A DNA stretch of 64,000 nucleotides from Nitrospirales bacterium (GCA_965223675.1 OZ245013.1:1569169-1633168), one strand, 5' to 3'; shown: positions 10,144 to 63,239, counted from the stretch's first letter. The notes: a model not told the origin generated them from the sequence alone. Numbers and translations: made by a program.

Positions 10144-10164
10144 CAGGAGTCGTTGGCTTCAATC

Positions 10165-11925: not shown

Positions 11926-11926
11926 C

Positions 11927-31459: not shown

Positions 31460-33160
31460 TTATTTGGTTACTTTTGCCCCCAGACCAACATGCTGAAGGT
31501 CTTTGCTTAAATCCAGTTGGACGCGCATGTGAAACACATCCTTGTCTTCAGAATTTTCTTTTGCTATTGCTTCACATTCGCCGAAACATTGACCAATCAA
31601 TCGTCGAACCAATTGCTCCCCGCCTACACCTAACATTTCCTCATCAGGTCGCTGTATCATCTCAGCTCCATCCACGGTACCGCCTCGTCCGGCTATTCGC
31701 ATTTGAAGAGTTCGTCGATTCCCCGGAAGGTATCCATGGACAGGCAGAGACTCCGCAATGTATGGCTCCCAATTATCCGACAACCAGTGTTTCACCTGAT
31801 CGAGGATCTGGGCTTGTAACCCTGGCAACCTTGAAATCGAACTGGCTTGTTCCTCTGCAGGCTCTATCATTTCGACCGAGATCATACGATGTTCACCTGG
31901 AACCGAAACAACCACAGCATCAAAATGGCTAATGTTTTGATAATGAGCAAGCATCTTTGCTGAGAACGCTACATCACCTACAATCATCGGAGTCGGCCAG
32001 ACTGGAATTTCCGTGACTCTGTTTTCAGACGAATCAAGAGCGTGATCAGTCCGCCAAGACCATGGAGAAGCGACTCCAATAACCTCACCGGAGCTAGAAA
32101 TGGCCCGTACAAACACACGCCGAGGAGTACGAAATCGTTCCACGAATAACTGACTCGTGTTTACATTATCGTCTTGCCATCTCATGATCCCGCGATCGTC
32201 GTCATTATTCTGATTTTCCAGCAAAGAAAATTTCACCAATCGATGAATATTGCGAAGACGTTCGGGCACAAAGTACGACGTTACTGGGACCCACACGAAG
32301 TCCTGCTTATGTCCCCAGACATCAGAAATCGACGTCCCACTAAAACTTGGGGCTCCAAGCTCAATAGTGAACCCTTGCTGCCACACCTCATCGGCAACAT
32401 GCCAGGCTTCTTCTCGTCTCCGTTGGGTTTGCAGAAGACGCAAAGGCATGTCGGCAGGATGGATGTGCGATTGGGGAGAGGATTGTTTGTTAATCGTCGG
32501 GGCAAATGGCAATATTCGTTGACGCACCATGTCCTGCGAAGGTTGGGAGGCATCAGAAGATCTCAAGGTATCATTTGCTATCGGCTGTCTAGGCTTTTCT
32601 GATAGTGGACCAAAGAACCCTCCAATATGATTGGCCAATTGATGTGTGAGGGCAGGAAGAGCTTCGAGAGCATCAGAGAGTCTTGTCGCTCGTACGACAA
32701 ATCCGTGTTCTACATCAAGCACATGAACATCGACGGTTAATCGATGCCCAATGACAAAAAAACTCCCTTTTAATAAATATCGAGCCCCACTCAATTGCCC
32801 AAGCCTGACTGAAGATCCTGGATCAGACGTTCCTCGATGCTGAAGCCATTGTTCACGCAGGACGGCCCCCAACGATTGACGAGAGACGATATCTATCCCG
32901 GGCCACACGGCTAAATCTGTCACGAGCATATCAGAAAGGCCTTGCCGCAACCATTCCCACCCTGAATACTCTCCATGATAATCAAACGGCAACACGCCTA
33001 AAGAATGTGGTACAGGCAAAGGGTCTTGTTCTTGTGCGATGGAAGAGATGGGAAGAGTCGAAGGTTGAAAAGAGGAAGGCGCGGAACAACTGAGCAAGCA
33101 CAACATGGCCATACTCAGAAGACCACATTGAAGGATCAAACTTTTGTTAGCCAAGCACAC
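31460..33160 (-). CDS. putative lipoprotein with an N-terminal CsgG/LpoB-like domain and a large uncharacterised C-terminal region
   Basis: Lipobox LLSC. GVLPFDY...WEWLRQGLSDMLVTDL...IVSRQ pattern and a RYLLKGSF motif. The track start (33250) overlaps the PilZ gene. GTG 33160 or TTG 33154 would give a plausible signal peptide. The start is uncertain. Confidence 0.65.
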   Translation of the reverse strand: MCLANKSLILQCGLLSMAMLCLLSCSAPSSFQPSTLPISSIAQEQDPLPVPHSLGVLPFDYHGEYSGWEWLRQGLSDMLVTDLAVWPGIDIVSRQSLGAVLREQWLQHRGTSDPGSSVRLGQLSGARYLLKGSFFVIGHRLTVDVHVLDVEHGFVVRATRLSDALEALPALTHQLANHIGGFFGPLSEKPRQPIANDTLRSSDASQPSQDMVRQRILPFAPTINKQSSPQSHIHPADMPLRLLQTQRRREEAWHVADEVWQQGFTIELGAPSFSGTSISDVWGHKQDFVWVPVTSYFVPERLRNIHRLVKFSLLENQNNDDDRGIMRWQDDNVNTSQLFVERFRTPRRVFVRAISSSGEVIGVASPWSWRTDHALDSSENRVTEIPVWPTPMIVGDVAFSAKMLAHYQNISHFDAVVVSVPGEHRMISVEMIEPAEEQASSISRLPGLQAQILDQVKHWLSDNWEPYIAESLPVHGYLPGNRRTLQMRIAGRGGTVDGAEMIQRPDEEMLGVGGEQLVRRLIGQCFGECEAIAKENSEDKDVFHMRVQLDLSKDLQHVGLGAKVTK

Positions 33161-33755
33161 AGCTTTGAGATTGACTCTGGCGATGACGCTGCATGATCGC
33201 TTGCGACCGTATAATATGGCGAATGATGGCTTCACGGTCATCGTCCGCAATCTTAGTGAACTCTACAGCTATCTCAAATTTAGGGACATCGCTTGGCGTT
33301 TTCGATGGGGAGGTACGCAGTACTTTTCCAATAGCTTGTATGGGAATGAAAGGACGAAGAATCAATCGCAGCACAAGCACAGCATCAACCGGAAATTCTT
33401 TTTCCGAGGCAAACCGAATACCCGAACCACTCAAATTCACATTCATAAACTGCGGGATCGATTCTGACAAACGCTTATCTTTTGCGAGTGTCTTTAAGAC
33501 AGATGTGAGCAGCCAATCAATACGAGTCAACATTTGAAGCATTAATGGATCTTTAATGGTGAGGTCTTTTTCATCAACCATGGCCCGAACCAGATCAGGA
33601 GATATGGCTAATTCATCCCATTGCCATGGAGACATTTGCGTCCCATCAGCACCGACAGTTTCACACGAAAGCGCAAGGGGAACGTCTACAGAGACAGACG
33701 CATGAACTGATCCGCGAACGTCTTTTCGACGCTCATCACTATCAAGAACGCTCAT
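33147..33755 (-). CDS. PilZ-domain (c-di-GMP receptor-like) protein
   Basis: RRKDVR (RxxxR) at aa 9-14 and NLSGSG (D/NxSxxG) at aa 107-112, separated by an unusually long (about 90 aa) partly helical segment. Confidence 0.75.
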   Translation of the reverse strand: MSVLDSDERRKDVRGSVHASVSVDVPLALSCETVGADGTQMSPWQWDELAISPDLVRAMVDEKDLTIKDPLMLQMLTRIDWLLTSVLKTLAKDKRLSESIPQFMNVNLSGSGIRFASEKEFPVDAVLVLRLILRPFIPIQAIGKVLRTSPSKTPSDVPKFEIAVEFTKIADDDREAIIRHIIRSQAIMQRHRQSQSQSCVLG

Positions 33756-37041: not shown

Positions 37042-37869
37042 TTACTGCAGTAACGCCAACGCTTGCTGAGGCAAGGTGTTGGCCTGAGCTAAAATCGATG
37101 TCCCGGCTTGCACCAAGATTTGATTTCGCACGAATTGTGACGTTTCAAAAGCAATATCCGCGTCACGAATCCGTGATTCTGCAGCGGTGATATTTTCGTT
37201 TGCGACTTGCAAATTCTGAACGGCAGCATCGATACGATTCTGCAATGAACCTATTGTGGCTCGAGCACTCGCCACCGCGCTAATTGCACTATCAATATTG
37301 GACAGCGCACTCAAAGCTCCGGAAGACGTCGATACATTGACAGAGCTCAAACTAAGATCACTCGTCGTCAAATCATTAAGGGCGATCGACAAGGTATCAT
37401 TCGCGGAACTTCTGAATCCGATTTGAATCGAAAGACTGTTATTGTCCGCACCACTGAGTAATTTAACGTTGTTAAACTCAGTCACCGAGGCAATACGATC
37501 AATTTCAGATCGCAATGCAACGAATTCTTGATCTAGGTAAGACCGTTCCGTCGCACCAAGAATTCCACTTGCTGATTGTTCAGCCAACTCTCGAAGTCGG
37601 CCTAATAGATTACCAATATTGGCAGCACCACCGTCAGCGATCTGCAACAAGCTGATACCATCGTTGGCGTTTCGAGCGGCCTGATTAATACTTCTGATTT
37701 GAGCACGAAGAGTTTCCGAAATACCCAGACCGGCAGCGTCGTCAGCCGCTCGAGTAATTCGAAGTCCTGAGGAAAGACGCGCGACTGATCCATTCAACGA
37801 ATTTGTATTAACTTCAAGATTCCGTTGAGCGTTAAGCGACGCGATGTTGGTGTTTACGACAAGTGCCAT
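37042..37869 (-). CDS. fliC: flagellin (short, 275 aa)
   Basis: MALVVNTNIASLNAQRNL...LSSGLRI N-terminus and a LSLLQ-type C-terminus (QQALALLQ). AGGAGG SD. Ser/Thr-rich central segment. Confidence 0.93.
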   Translation of the reverse strand: MALVVNTNIASLNAQRNLEVNTNSLNGSVARLSSGLRITRAADDAAGLGISETLRAQIRSINQAARNANDGISLLQIADGGAANIGNLLGRLRELAEQSASGILGATERSYLDQEFVALRSEIDRIASVTEFNNVKLLSGADNNSLSIQIGFRSSANDTLSIALNDLTTSDLSLSSVNVSTSSGALSALSNIDSAISAVASARATIGSLQNRIDAAVQNLQVANENITAAESRIRDADIAFETSQFVRNQILVQAGTSILAQANTLPQQALALLQ

Positions 37870-37891: not shown

Positions 37892-37915
37892 CTTCAGAGT
37901 ATCCGTACTCTGAAG
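37892..37915 (-). promoter_or_regulatory. 5'-UTR hairpin presenting GGA in the loop (candidate CsrA-type site)
   Basis: The mRNA reads CUUCAGAGUA-CGGA-UACUCUGAAG (perfect 10-bp stem, 4-nt loop), 11 nt upstream of the AAGGAGGA Shine-Dalgarno. Confidence 0.45.
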
Positions 37916-37989
37916 AATGATTAGTGGTGAACTTGGCCCAAAGCCCCCTTTCCAAAACATGGATAATCGACTTCGGATTTCGCTCATAT

Positions 37990-38016
37990 CTATCGGAGGA
38001 ATACACAAAGACTTGA
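37990..38016 (-). promoter_or_regulatory. sigma-28 (FliA)-type promoter of fliC
   Basis: The minus strand reads TCAAGTCT-N11-TCCGATAG against the consensus TAAAGTTT-N11-GCCGATAA (6/8 and 6/8 matches, exact spacing). It lies about 120 nt upstream of the fliC ATG. Confidence 0.6.
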
Positions 38017-38121: not shown

Positions 38122-38655
38122 CTACCCACGCGATGGCAGGCGCGGAACAATTTCAAATTCCAAGAGGTCTGCGACTTCGACTATATCAACTCGTTCTCGC
38201 GCCGCAATGACCCTTTGCAGCCAATTCACCATTGAATCAGGCGGGGGTTGAGAGGTTCCAACTGTCCTGGCGAGTTCAGCCCATTCGACATAATCAGCCA
38301 GCCTCCCAAACCAATCGTCGAGTTGACGCAGACGTTTTTCTCCACGACGAAAGGCACGAGCCAAATTTTCTGCGTCTTCCTTAAGCGCTGCACCAAATTC
38401 TTGAGCACTCGGTGCCCCACTTTCGACGATCGACTGAAGCGGTCGACTGGTTGCGACTACATTGCCCATTTGACCAGCTTCCTGGGAAAGAATTGAAGGC
38501 ACGAGATCACGATCCGTAAAACATCGCTGGCCTACCTTCAAGTTGGTGACTAAACAGCCTCTTGCATGAGCCGTATCACTCAAGCGCGCAATCACTTCTT
38601 CGAGTTTCACGGTGTCCTCCATCTCCCAAGTCTCTTCATCGAGTTGAACTTGCAT
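38122..38655 (-). CDS. hypothetical protein (177 aa) between the GT9-like gene and fliC
   Basis: ATG preceded by AGGAGG at 7 nt. It overlaps the stop of the upstream gene by 20 nt. No recognisable motif. Confidence 0.65.
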   Translation of the reverse strand: MQVQLDEETWEMEDTVKLEEVIARLSDTAHARGCLVTNLKVGQRCFTDRDLVPSILSQEAGQMGNVVATSRPLQSIVESGAPSAQEFGAALKEDAENLARAFRRGEKRLRQLDDWFGRLADYVEWAELARTVGTSQPPPDSMVNWLQRVIAARERVDIVEVADLLEFEIVPRLPSRG

Positions 38656-40294
38656 ATTCGACCCTCCTTGTTGGTATATGATCGATTTTCAAATTCCGCA
38701 CCACATTCAATGCGCGACGTTTCCACATTGCGTATGCTTTCGCATGCTCACAGGCCATACCATAAAGATCGGATTGACTCAGGTTGTACGTATCTCGAAA
38801 ACAAGCAGAGGTAATCGGACTAAAAGCTGGCGACATACGTCCCAGTACTCTTGCCTCATGAGCTTTTTGATTTAAACGCTCATGGCAAGCTTTTATCCGG
38901 TGGACTGACAAGGAAGCCTGGGAGGTTAAGTCAACGAACTCGTTTACTGTATCACACAGAAACGTTAACAGAGGATCAAGTTTTGCGAACGTTTCTATCA
39001 CGTGATCCAGATCTGGAGGTTTTCCGTGTGGTCCTGACATGCGACTGATCTGCCCAGTACAGTCTTCATACCAAAACTTCCTCCAGAATTCTCCGTACCA
39101 TTGCTGAAGTGGGTCTTCTACTCCTACACGAAGGCGAAACGTCCCAAGCTGGTCTTCATCAACTCCCGCCTCATACACACGCGTTCCTATCGAAAAACCT
39201 GGCAACTCACCTTTCCCCAAGACATGCAGACACACATCTGCCACTAAGTGTGGCAGGAGTCGTTCCTTGCAGCTCTGGTGAGAACACACTTGGTCAAATC
39301 CACATGGTCCACATTCAATGTCTGGCTGGATGCACCAATGGTTTTTTCCGTAGGGACCTGTCTCTCGAAAATCAACGTGACCGACAGATACATTGACAAC
39401 CGGCAGGTTTACGCCAACGGCCAAGTGCATAGGCCCCGTATCATTCGTGAGCATTAACTGACATTGAGACAACAGTCCTAACAGCTGCTCGAGGTTTGTT
39501 TTTCCAATGGCATTACAAAGCGGACCAACCCCATCAGCATGTTTATAGCTCTGCACCGCTTCCTGTACTGCCTGTTGTTCCTTTTTTGTCCCAATCAACA
39601 CAAATCCAACGTTAAGCCGTTGACTAAGCAAGGCCATCGTCTGACCAAAATAGGTTGGGCGCCATGCTTTCATCACATCACTTGCCCCGACTTGCACCGC
39701 TAACCACGCGGAGGTCTCGCCAGACGACGCGAGTAAATTTCTTGCCCATTCCAGATCGATCGTATGTTGTTTTAACTCAATCGGTGCAAATGGACCCAGA
39801 CGACTCCCTCCCAAAGCATAGACATCAGCAAGATTAAAGCGGTTAAACTTTCGATAGGTATGCATATCGAGAAAATACGTCATCCAGGGGTTTTTGACGA
39901 TGACACTTCCATCCGGCGCGGTCGTGAGTCCTCGGATATCATGAGCTCCCACGTAACCCGTCAAATAGGCACTTCGTCGATTAAACGTGAGATTGATCAC
40001 CCGATCGTATCCATTCTCAACAAGAGGTTTCGCCCACTTTGCAAGATCCTGATACAACGCAACGACGTCTCTAGCCCGCACTCGTGTTTCATCCATGAGT
40101 AGTTGAAAGTCATGAGCCAGAACATGACGAATTCCAGGAAGAAGTTTCGCTATCTCAGAAAATTCCTTATCGACAATCAGGTCGATCTCCACACCTGGCC
40201 ATTCGTATTCCAATCGCTTCAACAATGGCGTCATCTGAACTAAATCACCCATGCGAGTGATATTTAATATGAGGACTTGTTTACTCATTAACAC
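38636..40294 (-). CDS. GT9-like glycosyltransferase with a ~200-aa C-terminal extension
   Basis: VLILNITRMGDLVQMTPLL N-terminus, TNDTGPMHLAVG and a CGPCGFDQVCSHQSC cluster (GT9 hallmarks), followed by a helical extension with no recognisable motif. Confidence 0.8.
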   Translation of the reverse strand: MLMSKQVLILNITRMGDLVQMTPLLKRLEYEWPGVEIDLIVDKEFSEIAKLLPGIRHVLAHDFQLLMDETRVRARDVVALYQDLAKWAKPLVENGYDRVINLTFNRRSAYLTGYVGAHDIRGLTTAPDGSVIVKNPWMTYFLDMHTYRKFNRFNLADVYALGGSRLGPFAPIELKQHTIDLEWARNLLASSGETSAWLAVQVGASDVMKAWRPTYFGQTMALLSQRLNVGFVLIGTKKEQQAVQEAVQSYKHADGVGPLCNAIGKTNLEQLLGLLSQCQLMLTNDTGPMHLAVGVNLPVVNVSVGHVDFRETGPYGKNHWCIQPDIECGPCGFDQVCSHQSCKERLLPHLVADVCLHVLGKGELPGFSIGTRVYEAGVDEDQLGTFRLRVGVEDPLQQWYGEFWRKFWYEDCTGQISRMSGPHGKPPDLDHVIETFAKLDPLLTFLCDTVNEFVDLTSQASLSVHRIKACHERLNQKAHEARVLGRMSPAFSPITSACFRDTYNLSQSDLYGMACEHAKAYAMWKRRALNVVRNLKIDHIPTRRVEYASSTR

Positions 40295-40444: not shown

Positions 40445-42265
40445 TCACACAAAATCCCTAGTTTCTTGCCGATATTCATCCATCATCAAGATAAGCAACT
40501 CATTCCGGCTTAAGACAGCTGTAGGACCCTTAGCCCGAATCTTGGCAGCCACATCTTCCAATTCCACTCGTTCAGTATCTCGGAACGGCTGCAAGAGAGG
40601 TAACAACTCAGGTGATTCCTGACTTTTTTTGACTAACGAAGATGCATTACGTTCACCGCGCAACACAGCACCAACTCGATCTGGCTGATGAAGTCCTATC
40701 TCACTCAATAAGGTCTTCATACGATGAACATAGGTATGATGACGTAATACGTGTTGTCTTGAGGCCTCAGCCATATCATGACGTGCGTCTGAATCTTTCA
40801 CGTACCGATCGACCGTCGAAGTCAGATCTTCGGGGCTATTGATCACACCCATCATTGACTGATCGAAATGCTCGAAGAGAAGCTCTCTCGTATCTGAGAT
40901 TTGAAAAGCTCCGCATGCCGCCAGTTCGAACATTCTTGGATTAAGACTATCACCATGAGGATCAAACCCTTCACCGGTATACGAATGAAGATTGATATTC
41001 ACTTTGGTGCAATTAAAGATCTTGACACTGGTTTCTGCATCAATCCTAGCGCCCTTTCGCTGCAAAACTTGTCCCAACGGACCGGGATCTTCCCATTCAT
41101 TTCCCCAAAGCTTGAATGACCAACTATGATTCAGGAGCGATTGAAGTAAAAGCCGGCGATTGGGATATCCTGCACCGAGGAAAGAAACATCGGCACCGAA
41201 TTCTTGCTGTTCTTCAAACGTACAATTCAGGGGTCGATGAATCTCTGGGTTCGCCGCTAACGGCAAATAGCTTACATGCTTGGCTCCTGCATGGGATAAT
41301 GCATCGATGCAAGCTCGTTGCTGCATGACAAACCAAAAGTCGTATCCCGTTGCCACCTGCTGCCAGTAGGTGAGATGTCTGAAATTTTCCACAAACCACA
41401 TGGCTGTCAGCACTTTCTTTTTGCGTAGTTGTTCCAATACGGGCATGGCTAAAGGCGCCTGTGCCATCGCCAGCACAAGATCAGGTGGATCGTCTGCGAT
41501 ATGTGCAAGGCTGACGATCCCAAGTGTTTCGCCAAAACGGCTCTGCATCGTCAGTCGTAACTGGGGATCACGAAGATTTTCCAAACTTTTATATCCTGGA
41601 TGATGGATGGAATGATCAATCCAACTGACTCGATGCCCAAGATGCTCCAAGGCTGGAACAACGTGGAGTGCTACCGATAAAGAGCCTCCATAGATTGGTC
41701 CCACCACTGCAACATGGAGACGCCCCCCTTGCTTTTGAGACACTCGCTCACGTAGACAGTCTTGAAATTCTCTGATGTACTGTTCGTGAATAGCGGCCGA
41801 GGGGTCGTGGCGAATCATATGAATCCGGGAAGATGACTGGCTGACATAATCGGCGACTTCTTTGCATTCTCCCCAGAGCCATTGAATATGTTCGCCCCAT
41901 CCATCAAGAACCCTCACTGAAAGTGCATCAACTAATTCTCGTAAATCTGGGACTAACACCAAGATTGATTGCGTATCTGGAATCTTCTTTTTCAACGCTT
42001 CAATATGATAGAGGAGTCCTACTCCAATAATCAGAATCGCTTCTCCTGCCTGAGGCTCGTGCATCTCCCTTTCTGCCCAGGTATACGCCTCTTTCATAGG
42101 ATCATAGGCACTATGAAGCCATTGCTCTTGAACACGTGCAGTCGGCATTCCATTCTTTGCATCGAGAATCGTGAAGGCTCCACCCTCTTCATCAAAAAGC
42201 TTTTCCGCAAGACCGGGATTTTGAAGACGAATAACGCGAAGATTTTCCTGAAGTATGCTCATCAA
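40445..42265 (-). CDS. Maf-N-terminal-like / CgeB-like glycosyltransferase family protein (606 aa)
   Basis: The N-terminus (LQENLRVIRLQNPGLAEKL...LHSAYDPMKEA...ILIIGVGLLYHIE) resembles motility-accessory-factor N-termini. The C-terminal half (NPRMFELAACGAFQISD...) resembles the CgeB/Glyco_trans_1_2 family. Confidence 0.65.
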   Translation of the reverse strand: MMSILQENLRVIRLQNPGLAEKLFDEEGGAFTILDAKNGMPTARVQEQWLHSAYDPMKEAYTWAEREMHEPQAGEAILIIGVGLLYHIEALKKKIPDTQSILVLVPDLRELVDALSVRVLDGWGEHIQWLWGECKEVADYVSQSSSRIHMIRHDPSAAIHEQYIREFQDCLRERVSQKQGGRLHVAVVGPIYGGSLSVALHVVPALEHLGHRVSWIDHSIHHPGYKSLENLRDPQLRLTMQSRFGETLGIVSLAHIADDPPDLVLAMAQAPLAMPVLEQLRKKKVLTAMWFVENFRHLTYWQQVATGYDFWFVMQQRACIDALSHAGAKHVSYLPLAANPEIHRPLNCTFEEQQEFGADVSFLGAGYPNRRLLLQSLLNHSWSFKLWGNEWEDPGPLGQVLQRKGARIDAETSVKIFNCTKVNINLHSYTGEGFDPHGDSLNPRMFELAACGAFQISDTRELLFEHFDQSMMGVINSPEDLTSTVDRYVKDSDARHDMAEASRQHVLRHHTYVHRMKTLLSEIGLHQPDRVGAVLRGERNASSLVKKSQESPELLPLLQPFRDTERVELEDVAAKIRAKGPTAVLSRNELLILMMDEYRQETRDFV

Positions 42266-42278: not shown

Positions 42279-43370
42279 TCATACACCTAACTCATGATGG
42301 ATCTGATGACTGAGTTCACGAAATTTCCTCCCAACTGCATTGTATTTGCTAGACAAGGAAGCATTCTTGAGAGAACGATGAGCACTGTTCTCATAGCGGG
42401 AGGCAACATATTCATAGACTGGTGCCAGCAGGAAAAGAATTTCTCCTTGCCGATCACTACGTTGGCGAAGAACACTTTGTGAATCAATGGTTTTTAGCGT
42501 ATCGAGAATACTCTGTGCACGATGAACTCCAGTGTGTTTCTTCTCCACCTCCAAACGTCCGCGAGAAGCGATCTCTTCCCGCTCCTCATGATGTGCATCA
42601 TAATATTGTGCGATGTGAAGGACTTCTTCGATATTCCCTTTCGCATACATTACACAATGGGTCTTGTCCTGAAATAGATCCTCTAATCCGTTCCCAACCC
42701 GCTCCATCAACAACATGCCTCCGCAAGCCATGGCTTCAAACGTACGAAAATTCACATCATTGTCTGCACATTGATTCAGTATCATTTTGGATTGCATGAA
42801 CACGGAGAGATAGTCACCGGTTCCAACATAGAGAGGATAAGCCTCTTGTAGAGTTTTTAGAAATGCATACCGCACCGGATTGAGAGTCGGGTTGATGCTG
42901 CCTACAAAACTCAAATCATACGTTCTAGAATGACAATCATCTAAGGATGGAATAGTCGGAGGAAATAAGGGAAGCCACTGTGCAATCTGCCTGGACTGAT
43001 CACGTACATAACCCGAGACAAAATCTCGTTGTGCGACAAATATCACATCGAATATTGCAGCATAGGCTTGATGCCATCGATGATGAATATGCGAATCGAT
43101 CGCATACCAACCAACAGGAATATGTAGTCGCTCCAACCCTAAAAATAGAGGATGAGTACTTTCATCGGTCAACAACACAAAATCAGGATTCCATCCTGTG
43201 GGTAAGTGCTGCCATAGTCGATCAATCGAAATGGGATATTCAGGCATTTTGATATCACCGGTATTATCTGTTGGACAGGTCAAAACATCATGACCTAATT
43301 CCTGAAACCCCGGTTTCAACGCTGGTAACCCAAGGAGTAAAATCTTCATCAACTTCTCATTCTCAAACAC
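42279..43370 (-). CDS. CgeB-like glycosyltransferase family protein (paralog A)
   Basis: FRTFEAMACGGMLLMERV...EEREEIASRGRLEVEKKHTGVHRA, a CgeB/Glyco_trans_1_2-type C-terminus. It aligns along its full length with the next gene. Confidence 0.7.
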   Translation of the reverse strand: MFENEKLMKILLLGLPALKPGFQELGHDVLTCPTDNTGDIKMPEYPISIDRLWQHLPTGWNPDFVLLTDESTHPLFLGLERLHIPVGWYAIDSHIHHRWHQAYAAIFDVIFVAQRDFVSGYVRDQSRQIAQWLPLFPPTIPSLDDCHSRTYDLSFVGSINPTLNPVRYAFLKTLQEAYPLYVGTGDYLSVFMQSKMILNQCADNDVNFRTFEAMACGGMLLMERVGNGLEDLFQDKTHCVMYAKGNIEEVLHIAQYYDAHHEEREEIASRGRLEVEKKHTGVHRAQSILDTLKTIDSQSVLRQRSDRQGEILFLLAPVYEYVASRYENSAHRSLKNASLSSKYNAVGRKFRELSHQIHHELGV

Positions 43371-44443
43371 GGCGCTTCGCCTAAGTTATGAAGAACCTTC
43401 GATCGAGCCTCCTGGAATGCCGCTGACGTACGCACACATTCGTGAAACTGTGAAGGCAAATCCTTATAACGACGACTTGTTACCTCATACACACTGGCAG
43501 CATGCTCGTAGACACGATCTAACTGACGATTGATTTCAATTAGCTTGGATTGTCTACTCTTGACCAACACGTGAGCGTTCGCAGCCCGAACGATATCGAC
43601 GATTGTCCGAACTCGATGCATAGTCGTGTGACATGTGAGAACTCGCTCTCTTCCTTCATGAGCGATCTCTTCACGCTCCTGCTCATGCCTAATATAGTGC
43701 AGAGCTAATTCAACGATCTGATCGATATTGTCTCTTTCATACATCACGAGGTGCGTACGATCCTGGAACAGATCCTCGAAGCCATTTCCTACTCTTTCTG
43801 TCAGCAAAAGACTCCCACAGGCGAGCGCTTCAAACACTCGAAAATTCACGTCATTGGCGGCACATTCATTGAAGACCACCCGTGAGCGATTAAACACGCT
43901 CACATATTCGCCAGTCGTCGTATACATCGGAATTCGTTCCATCACTGCATTGAGTAAGCGACTCCGCTTAGGTTTCCATCTTTCATCAATAACGCCGACA
44001 AAACTCAGATCATATATTTTCGGTAATGGAAAATAGCGATCTCGCTCAGGATTACAAAAGAGCGGCAACCATCTCACAACCTGCCGAGAAGAGTCTTGTT
44101 CATAATCAGGGAGATAATCTCTTTGAGCGACAAACACAAAATCGAACACGGATGTGTAGGATTTATGCCAATCCAAATGGAGATGGGCATCGATGGTGTA
44201 CCATGCCAGCGGGACATCGAGACGCTCTAATCCCAAAAACATGGGTTCCGTACTCTCATCCATCAACATAACAAGATCGGGATTCCAATCACTCGGCAAC
44301 GCTTGAAGAACTTTATTGATAGAGACAGGAAATTCATCGATCCAAATATCTCCACTTTGATCGGTCGTACACGTCAATACGTCATGTCCACATTGGAGAA
44401 AAGCTCCCTTCAGTACAGGAAACCCTAATAAAAGTACGTTCAT
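43349..44443 (-). CDS. CgeB-like glycosyltransferase family protein (paralog B)
   Basis: Collinear with 42279-43370 (for example GHDVLTC.TD..GDI, WNPD, DES..P.FLGLERL, VFVAQRD, WLPLF, FRVFEALACGSLLL). Confidence 0.7.
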   Translation of the reverse strand: MNVLLLGFPVLKGAFLQCGHDVLTCTTDQSGDIWIDEFPVSINKVLQALPSDWNPDLVMLMDESTEPMFLGLERLDVPLAWYTIDAHLHLDWHKSYTSVFDFVFVAQRDYLPDYEQDSSRQVVRWLPLFCNPERDRYFPLPKIYDLSFVGVIDERWKPKRSRLLNAVMERIPMYTTTGEYVSVFNRSRVVFNECAANDVNFRVFEALACGSLLLTERVGNGFEDLFQDRTHLVMYERDNIDQIVELALHYIRHEQEREEIAHEGRERVLTCHTTMHRVRTIVDIVRAANAHVLVKSRQSKLIEINRQLDRVYEHAASVYEVTSRRYKDLPSQFHECVRTSAAFQEARSKVLHNLGEAPCLRMRS

Positions 44444-45801
44444 ATCAACCCCTGCGAGGCGTAAGAAAATTCAGATTCATTCATCAGTTCTACAACTGAG
44501 TCCCAATCAACATTCTCACGACCATGAAGCTTCTCCCATAATTGTTCTCGATAACGACCAGCCCCCATATTGGGGTTACCGTACTGGACGAAATGAGCAC
44601 CGTAATGATCCTGTTGACTCCTCCAGAGGCTCCATCCTTCAGGAATGACCGAACATGTTTCCGTCAACAAAAGCTCCACACTTTCTCTGACCGGCCAATA
44701 CTCCGGCCTAACCCCCTCATTGGCATTTTTCACTTTGCCATTCCCACGTTGAGTTTCATTCCCTTCCTTACCCTTCACCCCTAACTCCTCACGCCTCCCC
44801 CCTACTTCCGCATGTTTCACGTTTAACGTTTCACGTTTCACGCTCCGCTCGGCCTGCCACACCCAATGGCCTTTGCCGTAGGGTCCTGTTTCATGGACGC
44901 GCGCACGAGAAAAATACAAGCCTTGTGTTTTTGCGCCGCATGCCACACCCAAATGGAGAGGTCCCGTATCCGAACCAATAACCCAATCACAATAAGATAA
45001 GAGATGAGCCAATTGGGGAAATGTGGTTTGTCCACACATATTCCAAATCCGCCCCATAAGCAATGATGGGATCCGATCTAAAAGTGAATACGTTAACTCC
45101 CGTTCTCCTGTCCCTCCAATCAGGACGACACGACCTTGAGGGGATGTTGAAAGAAAGGTAGAAATCCATTGTTCCCACGTATGAAGTGGGATTCGTCGAT
45201 CAGCGTCACCCGATCCGATAACAATGCCCACTCGAATGCCATCAGATGTCATAAAATCATCAAGCTCACGGGGCCAATTCATTTCAGACAATTGCAACAT
45301 TGCAACATGACTTGGAGGTTTGACCCCACAAAGGCCACAAAACGCGTCAGCAAGATGCACCCGATTATTTCCTCGATGTGCACCCACAAGATTCAAATAC
45401 TTCACCCAACTGGGAAGCTCTGACGAAAGAGGTCCATAACAACCAGGACCACTCACGTTAGTCGCCATAAGATGTGCGGCGAAGATCGCTCGAGAATGAT
45501 TATTCAAGTTATAGGCCATCTCATACGTGTCTGCCTGATATCTTTCCATGCACTTCGCCGCTCGAGACAACACGTTTTCAGCTTTAAATGACCAACTTTT
45601 CGCCATCTCTCCCCATTCAGTTCCATCCCAAGGAAAGACTCGTTCCACTCCTGGGAAAAGTTTGCCTACTGGAACCAAAGGAGCAGCACACAAAAGGTCA
45701 ATCCGATTATCTGGGGGTAAAGATCTCAGAGCAGTCACTGCCGGTAGGGTTTGAACAAGATCCCCCAACCTAGCCAATTGGATTACAAGACGATTCGACA
45801 T
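44440..45801 (-). CDS. GT9-like glycosyltransferase with the Cys cluster replaced by a low-complexity insert
   Basis: LVIQLARLGDLVQTLPAV N-terminus and GSDTGPLHLGVA motif. After GPYGKGHWVW the usual CxxC...C cluster is replaced by RSVKRETLNVKHAEVGGRREELGVKGKEGNETQRGNGKVKNANEG. Confidence 0.75.
   Translation of the reverse strand: MSNRLVIQLARLGDLVQTLPAVTALRSLPPDNRIDLLCAAPLVPVGKLFPGVERVFPWDGTEWGEMAKSWSFKAENVLSRAAKCMERYQADTYEMAYNLNNHSRAIFAAHLMATNVSGPGCYGPLSSELPSWVKYLNLVGAHRGNNRVHLADAFCGLCGVKPPSHVAMLQLSEMNWPRELDDFMTSDGIRVGIVIGSGDADRRIPLHTWEQWISTFLSTSPQGRVVLIGGTGERELTYSLLDRIPSLLMGRIWNMCGQTTFPQLAHLLSYCDWVIGSDTGPLHLGVACGAKTQGLYFSRARVHETGPYGKGHWVWQAERSVKRETLNVKHAEVGGRREELGVKGKEGNETQRGNGKVKNANEGVRPEYWPVRESVELLLTETCSVIPEGWSLWRSQQDHYGAHFVQYGNPNMGAGRYREQLWEKLHGRENVDWDSVVELMNESEFSYASQGLI
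44814..44841 (-). repeat. 4 tandem heptanucleotide units inside the GT9-like CDS
   Basis: The plus strand reads gtttcac gtttaac gtttcac gtttcac (coding strand GTGAAAC x3 plus GTTAAAC), followed on the coding strand by a purine-rich tract. Confidence 0.9.
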
Positions 45802-47025: not shown

Positions 47026-50000
47026 CTAAGAATTTGCGACAGCCTTGAGATCTACTTCGCCATTCTCAATGGCACGCTCCAAATCTTGAAGTCCCTCATA
47101 GTCTGGGCTGAGAAGTTGTAGAGTTTGTAAATGTGATTGGGCCTCGTAAATATTTCCTCGACGAACCTGAACCCCCGCCAATGCATATCGCATGTCACAA
47201 TTCGCTGGATTCCGCTCTACAAAGTTCGTGAGGCATGTCACTAACGCATTCCAATCAGCTAATTCAGTACCGACTTGAATTAACCAGTTCATGATTTCCA
47301 CATCATCAGGATTTTGATTCCAGGCTATCTTAAGCGTGTTCCACGCTTGTTTCGTTTTCCCTAAACCTACGTACGCCATTCCTAATCCCATTTGGGATTT
47401 TGTGGAATTGTCACCATCTTGAATAGCACGCTGAAATGCTGTAACGGCATCGACAAACCTTTGACATTGGATATGACAAACACCTTGAATATTCCATAAA
47501 TCTCCGTCATCGTTTTTATAGACAAATGCCTTGTCGAGGTGGCTCTGTGCACAGTGTATGTCACCCCGACTCAATGCCAATTTTGCGAGTACTTTCCGCA
47601 CATCAAGATCCTCTCTTGATTGAAGAACACGTTGAAAGAAGCTTTCACTTTCTCGGCCCAGGTTCATACTCGCACAGGTCTCACCTAACCATTTCAGAAT
47701 TTCAGAGTCGTCCGGCCACTCCCTCTCCCCTCTCAAGAGTTTATCAATTTCGTCTTTTAACCCTGAACTGGCTTCTGCTCCACTCTTTTTCCACCGAAAA
47801 AGAAGACGTTGAAGATCAGCAACGTTCTTGCTTTCCTGCGAATCATTAGTTGTCTGAAGAAGCCTGTAGATATATCTCCCCACCCCCCCCTCACTTGACG
47901 TTTCTAATTTAAGCCCATCTTCAAACGCCATAAAATCTTCATCGACGCAAATCGTGTTCCCCCATCGCTTCAGAAACAGTTCAACATTGTGGCTTTCATG
48001 ATTTTTTCTTCCCGGGCTTTGACTCTCTAAGTGATACATCCAACTTTTAGGCTGATAGACAATCTTCCCTCCTCGTTCTCCAATCCTTAGACAGAGATCG
48101 ATATCTTCAAATCCATTCTTGTAGTGTTCGTCATATCCCTCAGCGCTTTCAAACCAAGGACGCTTCACCAGCATGCAAGCGGCCGTCACCGCCTGAAACT
48201 CTCTTCGACGATTTCCAATTCTTCCATCATTGGGTAACCCACGATAGATGTGATAGGGCGTTAAGAGATTCCGACTAAATACCACCCCTGCATGCTGTAG
48301 AGAGCCATCAGCAAACAGAAGTTTGCTGCCCACAATCGCAATGTCATTGCTGGATTCAGCTTCTGCTACCAAGCACTTTAGCCATCCTTCCTGCGGAATT
48401 GTGTCATTATTCAGAAAGACCAGGTGCTTTCCTCGAGCCGCCTGTGCACCCTGATTGCAGCCCCTGGCAAACCCAAAATTTTCTTCATTCGAGATAATCT
48501 GCACATCCCCCTTGAGGGTTTTTAAGAATTCGTGCGTTCCATCGGTAGAATGATTATCCACGACAATCACTTCATAACTCACACTATCTGTAACCTTCGC
48601 CAGTTGAATAAGACATTGCTGGGTCAATTCTACCTTATTAAAAACTGGAATAATGATTGAACAGTCATATGGAAAGGAGTCAGGATTCTCTTTTTGATTA
48701 ATTACATCTCCAGCCTTTTGTGTAGCATTCGGATGACGCCTATACGTTCGATATTTTTCATGAATAATCTTCTGAGTTTTTAGAAAATCGTCAGGTCGCT
48801 GACTGGTCGTCGATGTGCCATCTGTGCGCCAGGTAAACTCAGCTGTCACAGACTTTATGTGATGCAAAGAAAAACACCGAGAGAGACGAATGATTAAGTC
48901 CCAATCTTCATGGGTGGAAAGTGTCTCATCGAATCCACCTACACGATCCACACACGACTTTGCATGCATGAGACATAATATCGGGATGTAGTTCTGTCGG
49001 AGAATCGCCTCTTTATTGAAATCCACTGAGTAGGGCACATCCCGGTCTTTCCTAATATACTGGCCGTTTTCTTTTATCTGCAGAACTCGATGCGCATCAG
49101 TATACGCCACTTGACAATCTGAGTTTTCTAAGCAGGATACAAGGGTCTCGATATGGTTCTCATAAAATCGATCGTCATCATCAAGATACGCGATATATTT
49201 CCCCTTAGAGAGTTTTATGCCCATATTTCGTGCATGAGACCGTTCTTTGTTTGCACCAAGACGAAGATATACTATCTTTTCTGAACCGGAGAGTGATGAG
49301 AGTTGCGTTTCCACATCACACCCACCATCATTAATCACGATCACTTCTACAGATTCATAGGTCTGGGCAAGAACACTTTTCACGGCTTCGACGAGGCGTT
49401 CTGGACGGTTAAACGTGGGAATAATCACCGAAACCATCGGCTGGTCTTTAGCGGAAACTTCGTCAGGTGATAGATCCGGAGACGCCTGTTCCATAAAAGA
49501 ATACTCCTTCTCCCCAAGACTGTTTTGAAGAGGATTCAAAGAATTGTCCTGATCGTTATCACGAAAATGTTTCATTTCTGACCCTTCCTGATTCAAAAGC
49601 TCCTGATTAGACATCCCTCCTGTGTGACGTTGGGTCAATTGACGAATCTTACCTGCCTCCTCAGACTTGCCATTTCGGGCGAGACAGCTAGACAGTAGCC
49701 AGTATATTTCTTCGCATGTTGGATAATGTTGAACGATTCGGTCATAGACTCCATGAAGTCCTTCAATGTGATTGCACAGATCCAGGGCACTTGCAAGGCC
49801 TAACAGTTCACATTCTTGTTCGGGAATATCAATACCGCGACTATACTGGCTCTGACTATTTATTCGATAGACAAAATAATCTTTCCAAAAATTAATCTGT
49901 TCACACCGAGAAAGCTTCGATTGATGCGCGGCAGAAATTTTGGTCCATTCATCCGCACGTGTTTCAAACGGCGCCACGACAGATTTCGACTCCGCTCGAC

Positions 50001-50619
50001 CTCCTTCCCTTGATTCACCAAGTATATGATCGATGTAATGGAAGACTTTCCCATGTGACGTGATTCTTAACCAGAACTCATAGTCAATTCCATATGGCAA
50101 ATCTTCCCGAAATTCACCCATTTCATCTAACAATGACTTCGAGTAAAACATGGAGGGCTGAAAAAGACCGTGCCCATTAAACCACCGAGCGACAACTGAA
50201 TGTGTGATCGGATATTTAGGAATATGCAGTCGAAGGGCGTCACCATTCTCATTAATAAACAAACCTTTTCCATACAAAACATATGATTCAGATAGTGTTG
50301 CTGCCTTCGAAACAACCTGCTGAAACACTCCTGCGTTCGAATACCGATCATCGGCCCCGATCCAGCCAATGATGTCGCCGGTAGCCATACGAATAGCTTT
50401 ATTGAGTGCCTCTGCCTCTCCATGATCAGGCTCAGAGATCCATTTAAGATGAGAATATTTTTTGAGAACTTCCACTGTTCCGTCCGTTGAGGCACCATCG
50501 ACAATAATATGCTCAAAATCCTGGAAGCTCTGGGCGAGAACACTTTCAATACATTGTGGAAGAAAGTCTGCACAATTGAACGCCGGTGTCACGATAGAAA
50601 TCTTAGGATATGCACTCAT
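47026..50619 (-). CDS. 1197-aa multidomain protein: three GT2 glycosyltransferase domains plus C-terminal TPR repeats
   Basis: GT2 no. 1 at aa ~6-225 (ISIVTPAFN...IIVDGASTDGT). GT2 no. 2 at aa ~396-600 (VSVIIPTFN...VIVINDGG...LDDDD). GT2 no. 3 at aa ~653-870 (CSIIIPVFN...VIVVDNHSTDGT...NFGFARGCNQG). TPR-like helices at aa ~975-1180. Confidence 0.85.
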   Translation of the reverse strand: MSAYPKISIVTPAFNCADFLPQCIESVLAQSFQDFEHIIVDGASTDGTVEVLKKYSHLKWISEPDHGEAEALNKAIRMATGDIIGWIGADDRYSNAGVFQQVVSKAATLSESYVLYGKGLFINENGDALRLHIPKYPITHSVVARWFNGHGLFQPSMFYSKSLLDEMGEFREDLPYGIDYEFWLRITSHGKVFHYIDHILGESREGGRAESKSVVAPFETRADEWTKISAAHQSKLSRCEQINFWKDYFVYRINSQSQYSRGIDIPEQECELLGLASALDLCNHIEGLHGVYDRIVQHYPTCEEIYWLLSSCLARNGKSEEAGKIRQLTQRHTGGMSNQELLNQEGSEMKHFRDNDQDNSLNPLQNSLGEKEYSFMEQASPDLSPDEVSAKDQPMVSVIIPTFNRPERLVEAVKSVLAQTYESVEVIVINDGGCDVETQLSSLSGSEKIVYLRLGANKERSHARNMGIKLSKGKYIAYLDDDDRFYENHIETLVSCLENSDCQVAYTDAHRVLQIKENGQYIRKDRDVPYSVDFNKEAILRQNYIPILCLMHAKSCVDRVGGFDETLSTHEDWDLIIRLSRCFSLHHIKSVTAEFTWRTDGTSTTSQRPDDFLKTQKIIHEKYRTYRRHPNATQKAGDVINQKENPDSFPYDCSIIIPVFNKVELTQQCLIQLAKVTDSVSYEVIVVDNHSTDGTHEFLKTLKGDVQIISNEENFGFARGCNQGAQAARGKHLVFLNNDTIPQEGWLKCLVAEAESSNDIAIVGSKLLFADGSLQHAGVVFSRNLLTPYHIYRGLPNDGRIGNRRREFQAVTAACMLVKRPWFESAEGYDEHYKNGFEDIDLCLRIGERGGKIVYQPKSWMYHLESQSPGRKNHESHNVELFLKRWGNTICVDEDFMAFEDGLKLETSSEGGVGRYIYRLLQTTNDSQESKNVADLQRLLFRWKKSGAEASSGLKDEIDKLLRGEREWPDDSEILKWLGETCASMNLGRESESFFQRVLQSREDLDVRKVLAKLALSRGDIHCAQSHLDKAFVYKNDDGDLWNIQGVCHIQCQRFVDAVTAFQRAIQDGDNSTKSQMGLGMAYVGLGKTKQAWNTLKIAWNQNPDDVEIMNWLIQVGTELADWNALVTCLTNFVERNPANCDMRYALAGVQVRRGNIYEAQSHLQTLQLLSPDYEGLQDLERAIENGEVDLKAVANS
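47883..47890 (-). repeat. G8 homopolymer (coding strand) inside the triple-GT2-TPR gene
   Basis: Counted directly: plus strand c-a-CCCCCCCC-t. The coding strand GAG GGG GGG GTG GGG encodes EGGVG (aa ~909-913), between GT2 no. 3 and the TPR region. Confidence 0.95.
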
Positions 50620-61703: not shown

Positions 61704-63239
61704 TCACTTCAACAGTGATTCAACACTTCGTTGCAGTTGAACTCGATCAAGAGAAGCACGATTTCCCACAGTCATCACAGCTTGAGCCCCTGCTAAATTT
61801 CCGATTAATCCAACGACATCTGAAGGAACCCCCATCGCCACACACGGAGCAGTTAAGGCAAACAACGCATCTCCTGCTCCAATTCGATCAACAACTTTGA
61901 CCGCTAAAGAGGGAGTTTCAAAGAACCCATCATGCTGGTGATAAAGCAACGTTCCCTTATTCCCCTGGGTAACCATGACGGACGGACATCTCAAATCCTT
62001 CGACAGACTTTTTACGATAGACTTCAAGTTTCCACGAGCATCTCGCCGATCCACCCGTATCTCTTTTTCTTGTATGGAGATGTAGTCAGCCTTCCTATAT
62101 TTTGAGATTGTGTGAAACCCCATATTCGCAGCATTAATTTGAGTATTCACCGCTAAAAACGGGGCATGTTCCCCCACAAGATGAATTGCGGCTGGCGACA
62201 GTAACCCATGCCCGAAGTCTGCTACAATCGCCAGATCGCAATGTGCGAGTTTTTCCTTCAGCGTGTCACGCAGTTCCATATCTTCTCGATCGGTAAGAAC
62301 CGTATCGTTCATCTCATACACTTCCAAGAGTTTGGAAAATTGATATTGCTCAATGAATCGACGTTTAACGATGGTGGGAGAGCCAGACTTAAAGATAAAG
62401 GTCGGTTCGATATTGGTTTTTAGATTTTCTCGGATGAATCGTTCGTGCGGGTGCATCGTCCCCAAGTACGACACGAGCTCCACGCGATCACAGAAGCTTG
62501 CAAGATGGTTCGCAACCGCCAAACTACCACCTAACTGTTTTTCTTTTGAGGCATACTGCATAGCGAGGATAGGTTCTTTAGAGGATTTCCCTAACGCATG
62601 GCAATACACGTATTCATCGATGATCGCTTCTCCAATCACCAACACTCTGAGAGAACGCATGCGCTCAAGGTATTCAATAATGTTTTCTGCTCTATACTGT
62701 TCTCGAAATTTTGTCAGCCACCCATTCAAGTCTGGCGGAAACAAGGGAACATAACGGTTCAATAAACTCGTGGAGCTAAACTGCACGTCATTGGTGATTT
62801 CAAGACGTCCGCCAACGGATTGTACGGCAGCCTGCTCCCGTGCAAGTCCACCGGTTAAATCGGGGCGATCCTGGCTATAGTCCGGCCCTTTCACGTAGAC
62901 ATCTGGTTTTAAGGCTTTGATCGCATTCTCGGCTGTCTCCCAGCGATTAATGGCGACGTAGTCCACCGCATCCAAGGCCGCAATACCTTCAACTCTCAAA
63001 TCTTGCTGAAATGCAGGTCGATGAGGACCTTTATTCACATAACGATCGGGCGTAACCGTCACGACCAGCACATCTCCCAGCGCTTTGGCTTCTTCCAAAT
63101 GACGAATATGACCGACATGAAGTAAATCAAAGACTCCATGACAGTGCACAATGGTCTTTCCCCGACAACGAGCGTCTTGAAGAAGCAATTCTAACTCTTC
63201 AAGGGATTGTGCTTTTCTCAGGACGGCTACACTTGCCAT
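61704..63239 (-). CDS. bifunctional cytidylyltransferase-fold nucleotidyltransferase / PfkB-family sugar kinase (domain order reversed relative to HldE)
   Basis: N-terminal HCHGVFDLLHVGHIRHLEEA (HxGH nucleotidyltransferase motif). The C-terminal ribokinase-like domain ends with VVDRIGAGDALFA (PfkB GAGD motif). Confidence 0.8.
   Translation of the reverse strand: MASVAVLRKAQSLEELELLLQDARCRGKTIVHCHGVFDLLHVGHIRHLEEAKALGDVLVVTVTPDRYVNKGPHRPAFQQDLRVEGIAALDAVDYVAINRWETAENAIKALKPDVYVKGPDYSQDRPDLTGGLAREQAAVQSVGGRLEITNDVQFSSTSLLNRYVPLFPPDLNGWLTKFREQYRAENIIEYLERMRSLRVLVIGEAIIDEYVYCHALGKSSKEPILAMQYASKEKQLGGSLAVANHLASFCDRVELVSYLGTMHPHERFIRENLKTNIEPTFIFKSGSPTIVKRRFIEQYQFSKLLEVYEMNDTVLTDREDMELRDTLKEKLAHCDLAIVADFGHGLLSPAAIHLVGEHAPFLAVNTQINAANMGFHTISKYRKADYISIQEKEIRVDRRDARGNLKSIVKSLSKDLRCPSVMVTQGNKGTLLYHQHDGFFETPSLAVKVVDRIGAGDALFALTAPCVAMGVPSDVVGLIGNLAGAQAVMTVGNRASLDRVQLQRSVESLLK

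Follow-up and report, generated by a model that had tools for sequence, protein, structure and literature searches.

Within a 64,000-nucleotide window of a Nitrospirales bacterium genome (GCA_965223675.1 OZ245013.1:1569169-1633168), the flagellin gene fliC is preceded by two overlapping genes, one encoding a 552-amino-acid (aa) glycosyltransferase (GT) of family GT9, here called GT9_552, and the other a 177-aa partner, p177. We propose that this pair probably takes part in flagellin glycosylation, and we tentatively favor the more specific reading that it forms a dedicated two-component enzyme of a flagellin O-glycosylation pathway in Nitrospirales. A sequence-only reading of the window had suggested that the pair is a protein heptosyltransferase directed at flagellin. 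The direction toward flagellin is strongly supported by genomic context, namely, synteny, separate GT9 genes for lipopolysaccharide (LPS), and a surrounding island of soluble enzymes, whereas direct O-heptosylation goes beyond what these data show. The principal elements are as follows.

38636..40294, minus strand: GT9_552, extended GT9-fold glycosyltransferase (open reading frame [ORF], Pfam, AlphaFold2 [AF2], and Foldseek; family conserved at 49% identity or more across Nitrospirales)
38122..38655, minus strand: p177, Nitrospirales-restricted partner (ORF, AF2, homologues, and synteny)
38663..38669, minus strand: AAGGAGG Shine-Dalgarno sequence of p177, within the last GT9_552 codons (read from the sequence)
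37042..37869, minus strand: fliC, 275-aa flagellin with D0/D1 only (Pfam Flagellin_N and Flagellin_C)
40445..42265, minus strand: p606, a 606-aa GT with an unknown N-terminus of about 290 aa followed by DUF3880 and Glyco_trans_1_2 (Pfam; conserved core member)
44440..45801, minus strand: GT9_453, a 453-aa, second divergent GT9 paralogue of the flagellar block (Pfam GT9, E 1.5e-12)

The link to flagellin is evidenced by gene order. A scan of one genome per species gave 230 relatives of GT9_552, and the best 80 of the 230 loci were taken; all are from Nitrospirales, including Ca. Nitrospira defluvii, with identities of 48 to 71%. Neighbors were counted only in loci whose contig reaches far enough, with an upstream flank of 8 kb, and ORFs in the relatives were called mechanically from the first start codon, which over-extends some N-termini. 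The order GT9_453 - p606 - GT9_552 - p177 - fliC - flaG - fliD - fliS is kept wherever the contig allows. p177 comes directly after GT9_552 in 75 of 75 loci, p606 comes directly before it in just as many (75/75), fliC stands beside the pair in all 71 loci counted (71/71), and GT9_453 is present in 67 of 68, the one miss being an ORF-merging artefact. The two genes of the pair overlap or lie no more than 50 nt apart in every locus (75/75), with nominal overlaps of 4 to 236 nt under first-start ORF calls, and the distance from p177 to fliC is 189 to 427 nt in all but two loci. GT and sugar-biosynthesis genes are found contiguous with the flagellin gene, in a core order that is invariant across relatives; two GTs of 363 and 364 aa and the genes further upstream vary between lineages. 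In the window, flaG, fliD, fliS, and a conserved 105-aa ORF (p105) follow fliC on the same strand. The sequence-only reading had p177 abutting fliC, and the pair is indeed immediately upstream of fliC, although not literally abutting it, given a 252-nt spacer that holds the sigma-28-type promoter and leader of fliC. Compared with relatives, GT9_552 and p177 have ratios of nonsynonymous to synonymous substitution rates (dN/dS) of 0.05 to 0.2, with dS saturated, and this strong purifying selection indicates that both are real genes.

The window also carries separate machinery for LPS. A lipid A/inner-core block at 3.5 to 25.5 kb contains GmhB, LpxK, WaaA, MsbA, LpxB, LpxI, LpxA, FabZ, Skp, and BamA, and alongside GmhB, LpxK, WaaA, and MsbA (3.5 to 18 kb) it holds four GT9s of canonical length (338, 376, 361, and 356 aa; 114 to 184 bits), the same number that had been read from the sequence. 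GT9 membership was judged by the Pfam PF01075 gathering cutoff of 22 bits and LPS heptosyltransferase identity by NCBIfam equivalog cutoffs. The four canonical genes of this separate block cover LPS heptosylation, while GT9_552 sits between p606 and p177/fliC and not in the lipid A/core cluster.

GT9_552 is built on a conventional GT9 core to which further modules have been added.

39320..40294, minus strand: GT-B catalytic core, residues 1 to about 325, with D17, K209, and D285-T-G-P-M-H290 (alignments to 3TOV, WaaF, and WaaC)
39269..39313, minus strand: C328-x2-C331-x5-C337-x4-C342 cluster, probable metal site (invariant in 34 homologues)
39062..39259, minus strand: post-GT9 module of helix, beta-hairpin, and helix, residues 346-411, common to GT9_453 (hhalign and AF2)
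38693..39010, minus strand: clade-specific C-terminal helical bundle, residues 429-534 (AF2 and homologue search)

The ORF starts at a GTG codon to give 552 aa, and an identical public protein starts at an ATG two codons in to give 550 aa. Residues 86-334 match PF01075 with 75.1 bits against the cutoff of 22 (E 7e-21). The AF2 model, with a mean predicted local distance difference test score (pLDDT) of 87 and a predicted template modeling score (pTM) of 0.85, is GT-B to about residue 325, and a Foldseek search with it places the Veillonella GT9 structure 3TOV (E 1e-13) and the LPS inner-core heptosyltransferases WaaF (1PSW; 2e-13) and WaaC (1e-11) at the top, the leading matches spanning 1e-13 to 1e-10. 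This is the structure prediction and comparison for which the sequence-only reading had called; it makes 3TOV, WaaF, and WaaC the nearest folds and leaves TibC outside the top 50. In the alignments, D17 falls on WaaC D13, K209 on the lysine of the K-x-W motif (EKRW in 3TOV), and D285TGPMH290 on WaaC D261-T-G-L-S-H, and the TNDTGPMH motif occupies residues 283-290. Among GT9 enzymes, the Asp of the N-terminal GD motif (D13 in WaaC) is catalytic, and D(T/S)G(P/L)xH (DTGLSH in WaaC) is the donor-binding motif; the catalytic residues D17, K209, and D285 are retained in GT9_552. G16, D17, K209, DTGPMH, and the four cysteines C328, C331, C337, and C342 do not vary among 34 homologues, the most distant at 49% identity. 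The GT9-like 552-aa ORF, its N-terminal motif, TNDTGPMH, and the Cys cluster, all of which had been read from the sequence, are thus borne out by ORF, Pfam, and alignment evidence, and we propose that GT9_552 may act as a catalytically competent inverting GT-B enzyme. It shares with WaaC, WaaF, and 3TOV, its best matches in sequence as well as in fold, the GT-B fold, the N-terminal GD aspartate, the K-x-W lysine, the D(T/S)G(P/L)xH motif, and a CxxC..C..C cluster after the C-lobe; it differs from them in about 225 aa of extra C-terminal region, in N-lobe insertions, in its flagellar locus, and in its coupled small partner. The charge of the N-lobe was considered as a discriminator between LPS and protein acceptors and dropped as uninformative, since the window LPS GT9s span net charges of -6 to +10. 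As a side observation, three plant chains of the NAD(P)H dehydrogenase-photosystem I (NDH-PSI) supercomplex (9GRX_1, 7WFF_a, and 7F9O_6) rank 9th, 11th, and 16th in the Foldseek search, below bacterial GT9s; the GT9 fold has been recruited in chloroplasts as a non-catalytic NDH-PSI subunit.

After the core, the model runs through the Cys loop into a helix, a beta-hairpin (371-390), and then four long helices (395-534), leaving the last 12 residues disordered. The modeled helices indicate that the long helical C-terminal extension of about 200 aa, as first described from the sequence, is real. Its distal part, the bundle with helices at 429-458, 464-485, 492-503, and 510-534, is modeled at a pLDDT of about 90 to 97. 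Residues 335-552 find only 33 matches, many of them fragments, among 1.84 billion representative proteins, which identifies the extension as clade restricted, and it is absent from the window LPS GT9s. An hhalign comparison of the bundle (429-534) with FliS, p105, p177, and the p606 N-terminus shows no similarity. A FliS/FliT/GlfM-like nature of the bundle or of p177 was rejected on the same kind of comparison, with probabilities no higher than 0.5% against the locus FliS, p105, and the p606 N-terminus. The proximal part of the extension is shared with GT9_453, a paralogue in the flagellar block that the sequence-only reading had missed: residues 346-411 of GT9_552 align with residues 364-429 of GT9_453 at an hhalign probability of 97% (E 8.5e-11), an alignment of their cores reaches E 4e-95, and GT9_552 is the best BLAST partner of GT9_453 in the window. 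Since the cores align and the post-core module is shared, the locus has a small GT9 subfamily of its own, within which the terminal helical bundle of about 140 aa and the partner gene belong to GT9_552 and not to GT9_453. A C-terminal "YAS" tail common to both paralogues in a six-sequence alignment was dropped because it is not conserved across lineages.

The Cys cluster has an equivalent, CxxC..C..C in the same place just past the C-lobe, in three of the four window LPS GT9s (3540-12997, minus strand), which marks it as a trait inherited within GT9 and probably not a resemblance to TibC. GT9_453 of this genome has no such cluster and carries a low-complexity Lys/Glu/Gly-rich insert there instead. 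More generally, CxxC..C..C in GT9s looks like a widespread, little-discussed probable metal site, at a C-lobe position comparable to that of the TibC iron finger, although with different spacing.

p177 overlaps the 3' end of GT9_552 by 20 nt (38636..38655), exactly the overlap with a 177-aa protein of unknown function that had been noted from the sequence, and a perfect AAGGAGG Shine-Dalgarno sequence lies 7 nt ahead of its ATG. As judged from this overlap and the embedded AAGGAGG, p177 is translationally coupled to GT9_552. A profile check of whether it is a known flagellar component was negative: neither Pfam nor NCBIfam gives any family match, flagellar ones included, even at E<=10. Some homologues are tagged PF26154 in precomputed annotation; a rescan with a Pfam set that does not include this model gave no match. 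Single-sequence search retrieves 28 relatives and profile search 401, all of about 175 to 190 aa, and every source-named homologue is a Nitrospira or Nitrospirales "hypothetical protein"; names of GT9_552 and p177 homologues are Nitrospirales or Nitrospira throughout. In the AF2 model (pLDDT 89), residues 1-72 form a beta-grasp-like domain and residues 81-172, at the C-terminal end, a four-helix bundle. Against the Protein Data Bank (PDB), Foldseek returns nothing at E<=0.001, with weak ubiquitin-like and designed-bundle matches only. The invariant residues cluster in D113-W-x-G-x-x-A-D-Y-x-E and in the last helix (D163, L165, E166, and E168), and the protein is acidic, with an isoelectric point (pI) of 4.75. 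Pfam detects no TPR family match in either GT9_552 or p177, that is, no fused TPR of the FlmG/Maf-1 type.

Past 38 kb, all remaining genes of the window lie on the strand of fliC and encode glycosyltransferases or sugar-modifying enzymes. Besides GT9_552, p606, and GT9_453, the following members bear on the argument.

47026..50619, minus strand: 1197-aa protein with three tandem GT2 domains and C-terminal TPR repeats (Pfam)
61704..63239, minus strand: HldE-like bifunctional nucleotidyltransferase/sugar kinase (Pfam CTP_transf_like and PfkB)
42279..44443, minus strand: two CgeB-like Glyco_trans_1_2 proteins of 363 and 364 aa (Pfam; in some loci only)

None of 21 island proteins has a convincing transmembrane segment, whereas those of MsbA and WaaA are clear, and Pfam finds no flippase, polymerase, ligase, oligosaccharyltransferase, or polyprenyl-phosphate transferase between 38 and 64 kb, the upstream end of the island lying beyond the window. 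Soluble enzymes in the absence of a flippase, polymerase, or polyprenyl-phosphate transferase point to a cytoplasmic protein-glycosylation island and not to an envelope polysaccharide locus. The 1197-aa protein is an alternative candidate for a flagellin-binding, priming GT; many loci, but not all, have a homologue upstream of GT9_453 within the 8-kb flank. The HldE-like protein has its nucleotidyltransferase at the N-terminus and its PfkB kinase at the C-terminus, the reverse of E. coli HldE, and is a possible source of an activated heptose-type donor. Further island genes encode a TylF methyltransferase, dehydrogenases, methyltransferases, and epimerases/dehydratases.

Glycosyltransferase genes immediately upstream of fliC are established as flagellin glycosyltransferases, and flagellin glycosylation itself is well known, its enzymology being dominated by Maf, FlmG, Fgt, and GT2/TPR enzymes. 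Pseudomonas syringae has fgt1 and fgt2 upstream of fliC; Fgt1 adds rhamnose to Ser, and six Ser residues at positions 143-201 are modified (PMC3927599). Caulobacter FlmG binds flagellin through an N-terminal TPR domain, and its free GT-B domain cannot do so (PMC7591256). The present locus resembles these systems in its GTs immediately upstream of fliC and in a short, D0/D1-only flagellin (about 275 to 282 aa) with a Ser-rich center, and the logic of the Fgt and FlmG systems is modular, with a binding domain and a GT-B catalytic domain. It differs in that the GT family is GT9 and that GT9_552 has no TPR, which occurs only in the neighboring 1197-aa GT2 protein.

A functional precedent for p177 comes from Shewanella and others, where Maf-2 lacks a binding domain and the cis-encoded, 89-aa four-helix protein GlfM bridges it to flagellin; GlfM is soluble, depends on an essential Asp in its last helix, and is FliS/FliT-like by HHpred (bioRxiv 2023.12.03.569772). 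p177 is likewise cis-encoded and predicted to contain a four-helix bundle, with D163, E166, and E168 invariant in its last helix, and it is translationally coupled to its enzyme. In a comparison made by description only, it differs in its 177-aa length, in its added beta-grasp domain, and in having no FliS similarity. The enzymes differ too, Maf being a GT-A (MAF_flag10) nonulosonic-acid transferase and GT9_552 a GT9.

The sequence-only reading had taken its precedent for a GT9 acting on protein from the bacterial autotransporter heptosyltransferase (BAHT) family, TibC/AAH. That family offers the only proven case of a GT-B heptosyltransferase that O-glycosylates protein Ser with ADP-heptose; TibC has an N-terminal beta-barrel, a thumb hairpin, an iron finger of Cys339/342/358/370, and a dodecameric assembly (PMC4358343). 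Both proteins have four cysteines, forming a metal site in TibC, which also has extra substrate-handling modules, and invariant in GT9_552. Neither phmmer nor profile search matches GT9_552 to a TibC chain at E<=10, and the Foldseek top 50 contains none. Moreover, the GT9_552 model opens with Rossmann strand beta-1 at residue 6, leaving no N-terminal beta-barrel, and it has no thumb, its only beta-hairpins being at 119-134 in the N-lobe and 371-390 after the C-lobe; its C-x2-C-x5-C-x4-C spacing is common to the window LPS GT9s and unlike that of the iron finger. Because there is no beta-barrel and no thumb, and because the Cys cluster is spaced otherwise and common to LPS GT9s, GT9_552 is an LPS-type GT9 with additions, not a BAHT, and kinship with TibC/AAH was not detected. 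Nor would flagellin be a new use of the fold as such, as had been claimed: genes GT9-1 to GT9-5 are already catalogued in the variable region VR1 of enterobacterial flag-2 loci, with flagellin glycosylation predicted in silico only (PMC6993521). Since GT9 genes are already listed in flag-2 glycosylation regions, the bare idea is not new. Those genes share with ours the GT9 family and a flagellar locus, but they come from another phylum and have no reported C-terminal extension or partner. What is new here is the order-wide conserved GT9 pair, with its clade-specific extension and its beta-grasp/four-helix partner.

In the mechanism that we favor, GT9_552 would take a nucleotide-activated sugar, with ADP-heptose or a related heptose as the GT9 default, and would transfer it in the cytoplasm to unfolded or partly folded flagellin before flagellar type III export. 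The clade-specific helical bundle and the coupled p177 would supply acceptor recognition, with p177 bridging the enzyme to flagellin as GlfM does for Maf-2, and the sugar would preferably go directly onto Ser/Thr in the middle of the 275-aa flagellin. This central segment, the presumed glycan acceptor, is Ser/Thr-rich with conserved S/T columns at about 140-200, a feature that is only permissive for glycosylation. Direct action on Ser/Thr is favored because, among the GTs conserved in all loci, GT9_552 alone has protein-interaction hardware; even so, we put direct priming at somewhat below an even chance, and the elongation of a sugar placed by a neighboring GT is nearly as likely. The chance that the donor is heptose seems evenly balanced, an estimate drawn from the GT9 default and from the HldE-like gene in the island, which scores below the equivalog cutoffs. 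The flagellin glycan, acceptor, donor, and contacts among p177, enzyme, and flagellin are all matters that we infer.

Protein heptosylation is, to our knowledge, confined to the unrelated-looking BAHT family, and we know of no GT9-fold enzyme shown biochemically to act in flagellin glycosylation; our literature search found no report of a biochemically proven flagellin-pathway GT9 either. A far-reaching version of our proposal would make GT9_552 and p177 a second, independently evolved protein O-heptosyltransferase, in which an LPS-type GT9 was retargeted from 3-deoxy-D-manno-octulosonic acid (Kdo)/heptose acceptors to flagellin Ser/Thr by a helical domain and a beta-grasp/four-helix adaptor and primes a conserved flagellar glycan across nitrite-oxidizing Nitrospirales; we consider this version rather unlikely. 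If the favored reading is true, the flagellin glycosyltransferases gain both a catalytic family and an adaptor fold that are new to them, the pair shows how an LPS enzyme gets retargeted to a protein or a protein-bound glycan, and Nitrospira flagella turn out to bear a conserved surface modification. Nitrospira are the main nitrite oxidizers and comammox bacteria in soils, in the oceans, and in wastewater plants. Direct protein heptosylation, if shown, would make the pair considerably more interesting.

Several explanations compete with a dedicated two-component enzyme. GT9_552 might only elongate a flagellin glycan whose first sugar comes from p606, the 1197-aa GT2x3+TPR protein, or GT9_453, with p177 either helping, as a subunit, to place the enzyme on glycosylated flagellin or handling flagellin in some unrelated way. 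This proposal, somewhat unlikely but the most serious of the rivals, draws on the presence of at least seven GT domains in one co-oriented block, on the TPR-bearing and two-domain GTs as experimentally established flagellin-binding architectures, and on a GT9_552 fold nearest to LPS GT9s; the characterized non-BAHT GT9 enzymes known to us (WaaC, WaaF, and WaaQ) all use sugar acceptors. It has to contend with a GT2x3+TPR gene that is not in every locus within the 8-kb flank, where GT9_552/p177 is universal, and with a p606 in which Pfam sees no TPR; a pure elongator also has no obvious need for a 140-aa clade-specific bundle and a coupled partner. Quite unlikely, in our estimation, is that p177 stands apart from the enzyme, merely shares an operon with the GT, and instead regulates flagellin specifically or serves in its export or assembly, perhaps as a partner-switch or chaperone-type protein that works together with a CsrA-type fliC leader. 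Its position directly upstream of the fliC promoter, the conserved GGA-loop hairpin and GGA-containing Shine-Dalgarno sequence of the fliC leader, and an acidity (pI 4.75) like that of many flagellar chaperones would all suit such a role. Nevertheless, p177 matches no flagellar Pfam or NCBIfam family at E<=10, has no similarity to the locus FliS or p105, belongs to a locus that already has a FliS, and always sits at the stop of GT9_552 (overlapping or no more than 50 nt away) while keeping 189 to 427 nt from fliC in all but two loci.

It is very unlikely that the block makes LPS, capsule, or another envelope glycan, with an accidental adjacency to fliC and GT9_552 as an LPS outer-core heptosyltransferase. 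The GT9 family is overwhelmingly LPS related, the nearest folds are WaaF and WaaC, and a genuine LPS block is found on the same strand at a distance of 13 kb; yet the 80 loci examined all keep the gene order with fliC, the stretch from 38 to 64 kb holds no flippase, polymerase, ligase, polyprenyl-phosphate transferase, or membrane protein, and GT9_552 falls far below the LPS heptosyltransferase equivalogs and has an extension absent from LPS GT9s. The chance that GT9_552 is a TibC/AAH member or convergent copy, or a non-catalytic scaffold like the plant NDH subunit, is close to negligible. Its four-Cys cluster and the NDH-PSI chains at Foldseek ranks 9, 11, and 16 speak for it, but the sequence and profile searches and the top 50 fold matches are all without TibC, the N-terminal beta-barrel is missing, the cysteines are spaced differently, and there is no autotransporter in the vicinity; the TibC/AAH reading is largely refuted. 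For the scaffold, the invariance of D17, K209, and D285 argues against a pseudo-enzyme.

A number of observations weigh against the two-component enzyme that we nevertheless prefer. The NCBIfam heptosyltransferase equivalogs score GT9_552 at 75 against a cutoff of 185 (I), 69 against 135 (II), and 60 against 170 (III), and with scores so far below the cutoff heptose is only a candidate donor. Likewise, the rfaE domain I and II matches of the HldE-like protein are below cutoff, and the protein may therefore be dedicated to activating a heptose-like island sugar. The locus contains at least six other GT domains, including the TPR-bearing 1197-aa GT2 protein and the two-domain 606-aa GT-B protein, and these two are equally or more conventional candidates for protein priming. 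p177 has no FliS similarity detectable by hhalign; with none in the extension either, and with no PDB match for p177, its earlier suggested role as an adaptor keeps a published functional precedent in GlfM/Maf-2 but is argued from analogy and gene order. fliC has its own promoter, and none comparable was found ahead of the GT genes, which gives co-regulation no support. Finally, a literature search found no experimental report of glycosylated Nitrospira flagellin.

The fliC promoter and leader occupy the spacer downstream of p177.

37990..38016, minus strand: fliC sigma-28-type promoter, TCAAGTCT-N11-TCCGATAG (sequence)

The same motif is found in 72 of 73 loci, 124 to 205 nt (mostly about 145 to 160) upstream of the fliC ATG. 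Because fliC has its own sigma-28 promoter, the GT genes form a separate transcription unit that ends at it; no sigma-28-type promoter besides that of fliC was found ahead of the GT genes, and a generic scan for sigma-70 promoters and terminators stayed below shuffle expectation. The leader (window 37892-38016, minus strand) is about 120 nt here and roughly 100 to 180 nt across the 80 loci. It contains a hairpin, CUUCAGAGUA-CGGA-UACUCUGAAG, at 37915..37892 with GGA in the loop, followed by the Shine-Dalgarno sequence AAGGAGGA. The stem varies between lineages while pairing is kept (e.g., CCUCAAGG..CCUUUGAGG and CGUCGGC..GCUGGCG). We take the two GGA sites to be a classic two-site CsrA-type arrangement like that of Bacillus subtilis hag. 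No csrA-like ORF turned up when the window and the loci were scanned with a simple motif. In an Rfam scan, a tRNA was the sole match.

Other features of the island are of interest in their own right. The two-domain layout and size of p606 resemble those of FlmG-type flagellin GTs, with no TPR detected by Pfam, and we found no literature report of DUF3880 in flagellar contexts. The p606 C-terminal tail, LILMMDEYRQE[KT]RDF[LI], is strongly conserved across 77 loci and near-identical in closer lineages, a pattern that suggests a possible docking motif. Between 50682 and 60557 (minus strand) lie genes for a radical-SAM/SPASM enzyme, a GLF-like flavoenzyme/mutase, a Zn-dependent alcohol dehydrogenase, three methyltransferases, and a thiamine pyrophosphate (TPP)-dependent E1 alpha/beta pair, whose ORFs as listed overlap by 148 nt, probably through a start-codon miscall. 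This unusual sugar-tailoring gene set hints at a heavily modified, possibly branched-chain or acylated, sugar. Near the end of the window, a 184-aa ORF (63242-63796, minus strand) covers just the C-terminal half of the NAD-dependent epimerase/dehydratase profile (positions 155-240 of 240) and is either a truncated or frameshifted gene or one whose N-terminal half lies in another frame near the window end. On the other side of fliC, just downstream of the fliS operon (31460-33755, minus strand), are genes for a 202-aa PilZ-domain protein and a 596-aa protein with a CsgG-like segment, which are possible components of motility or secretion linked to cyclic dimeric GMP (c-di-GMP).

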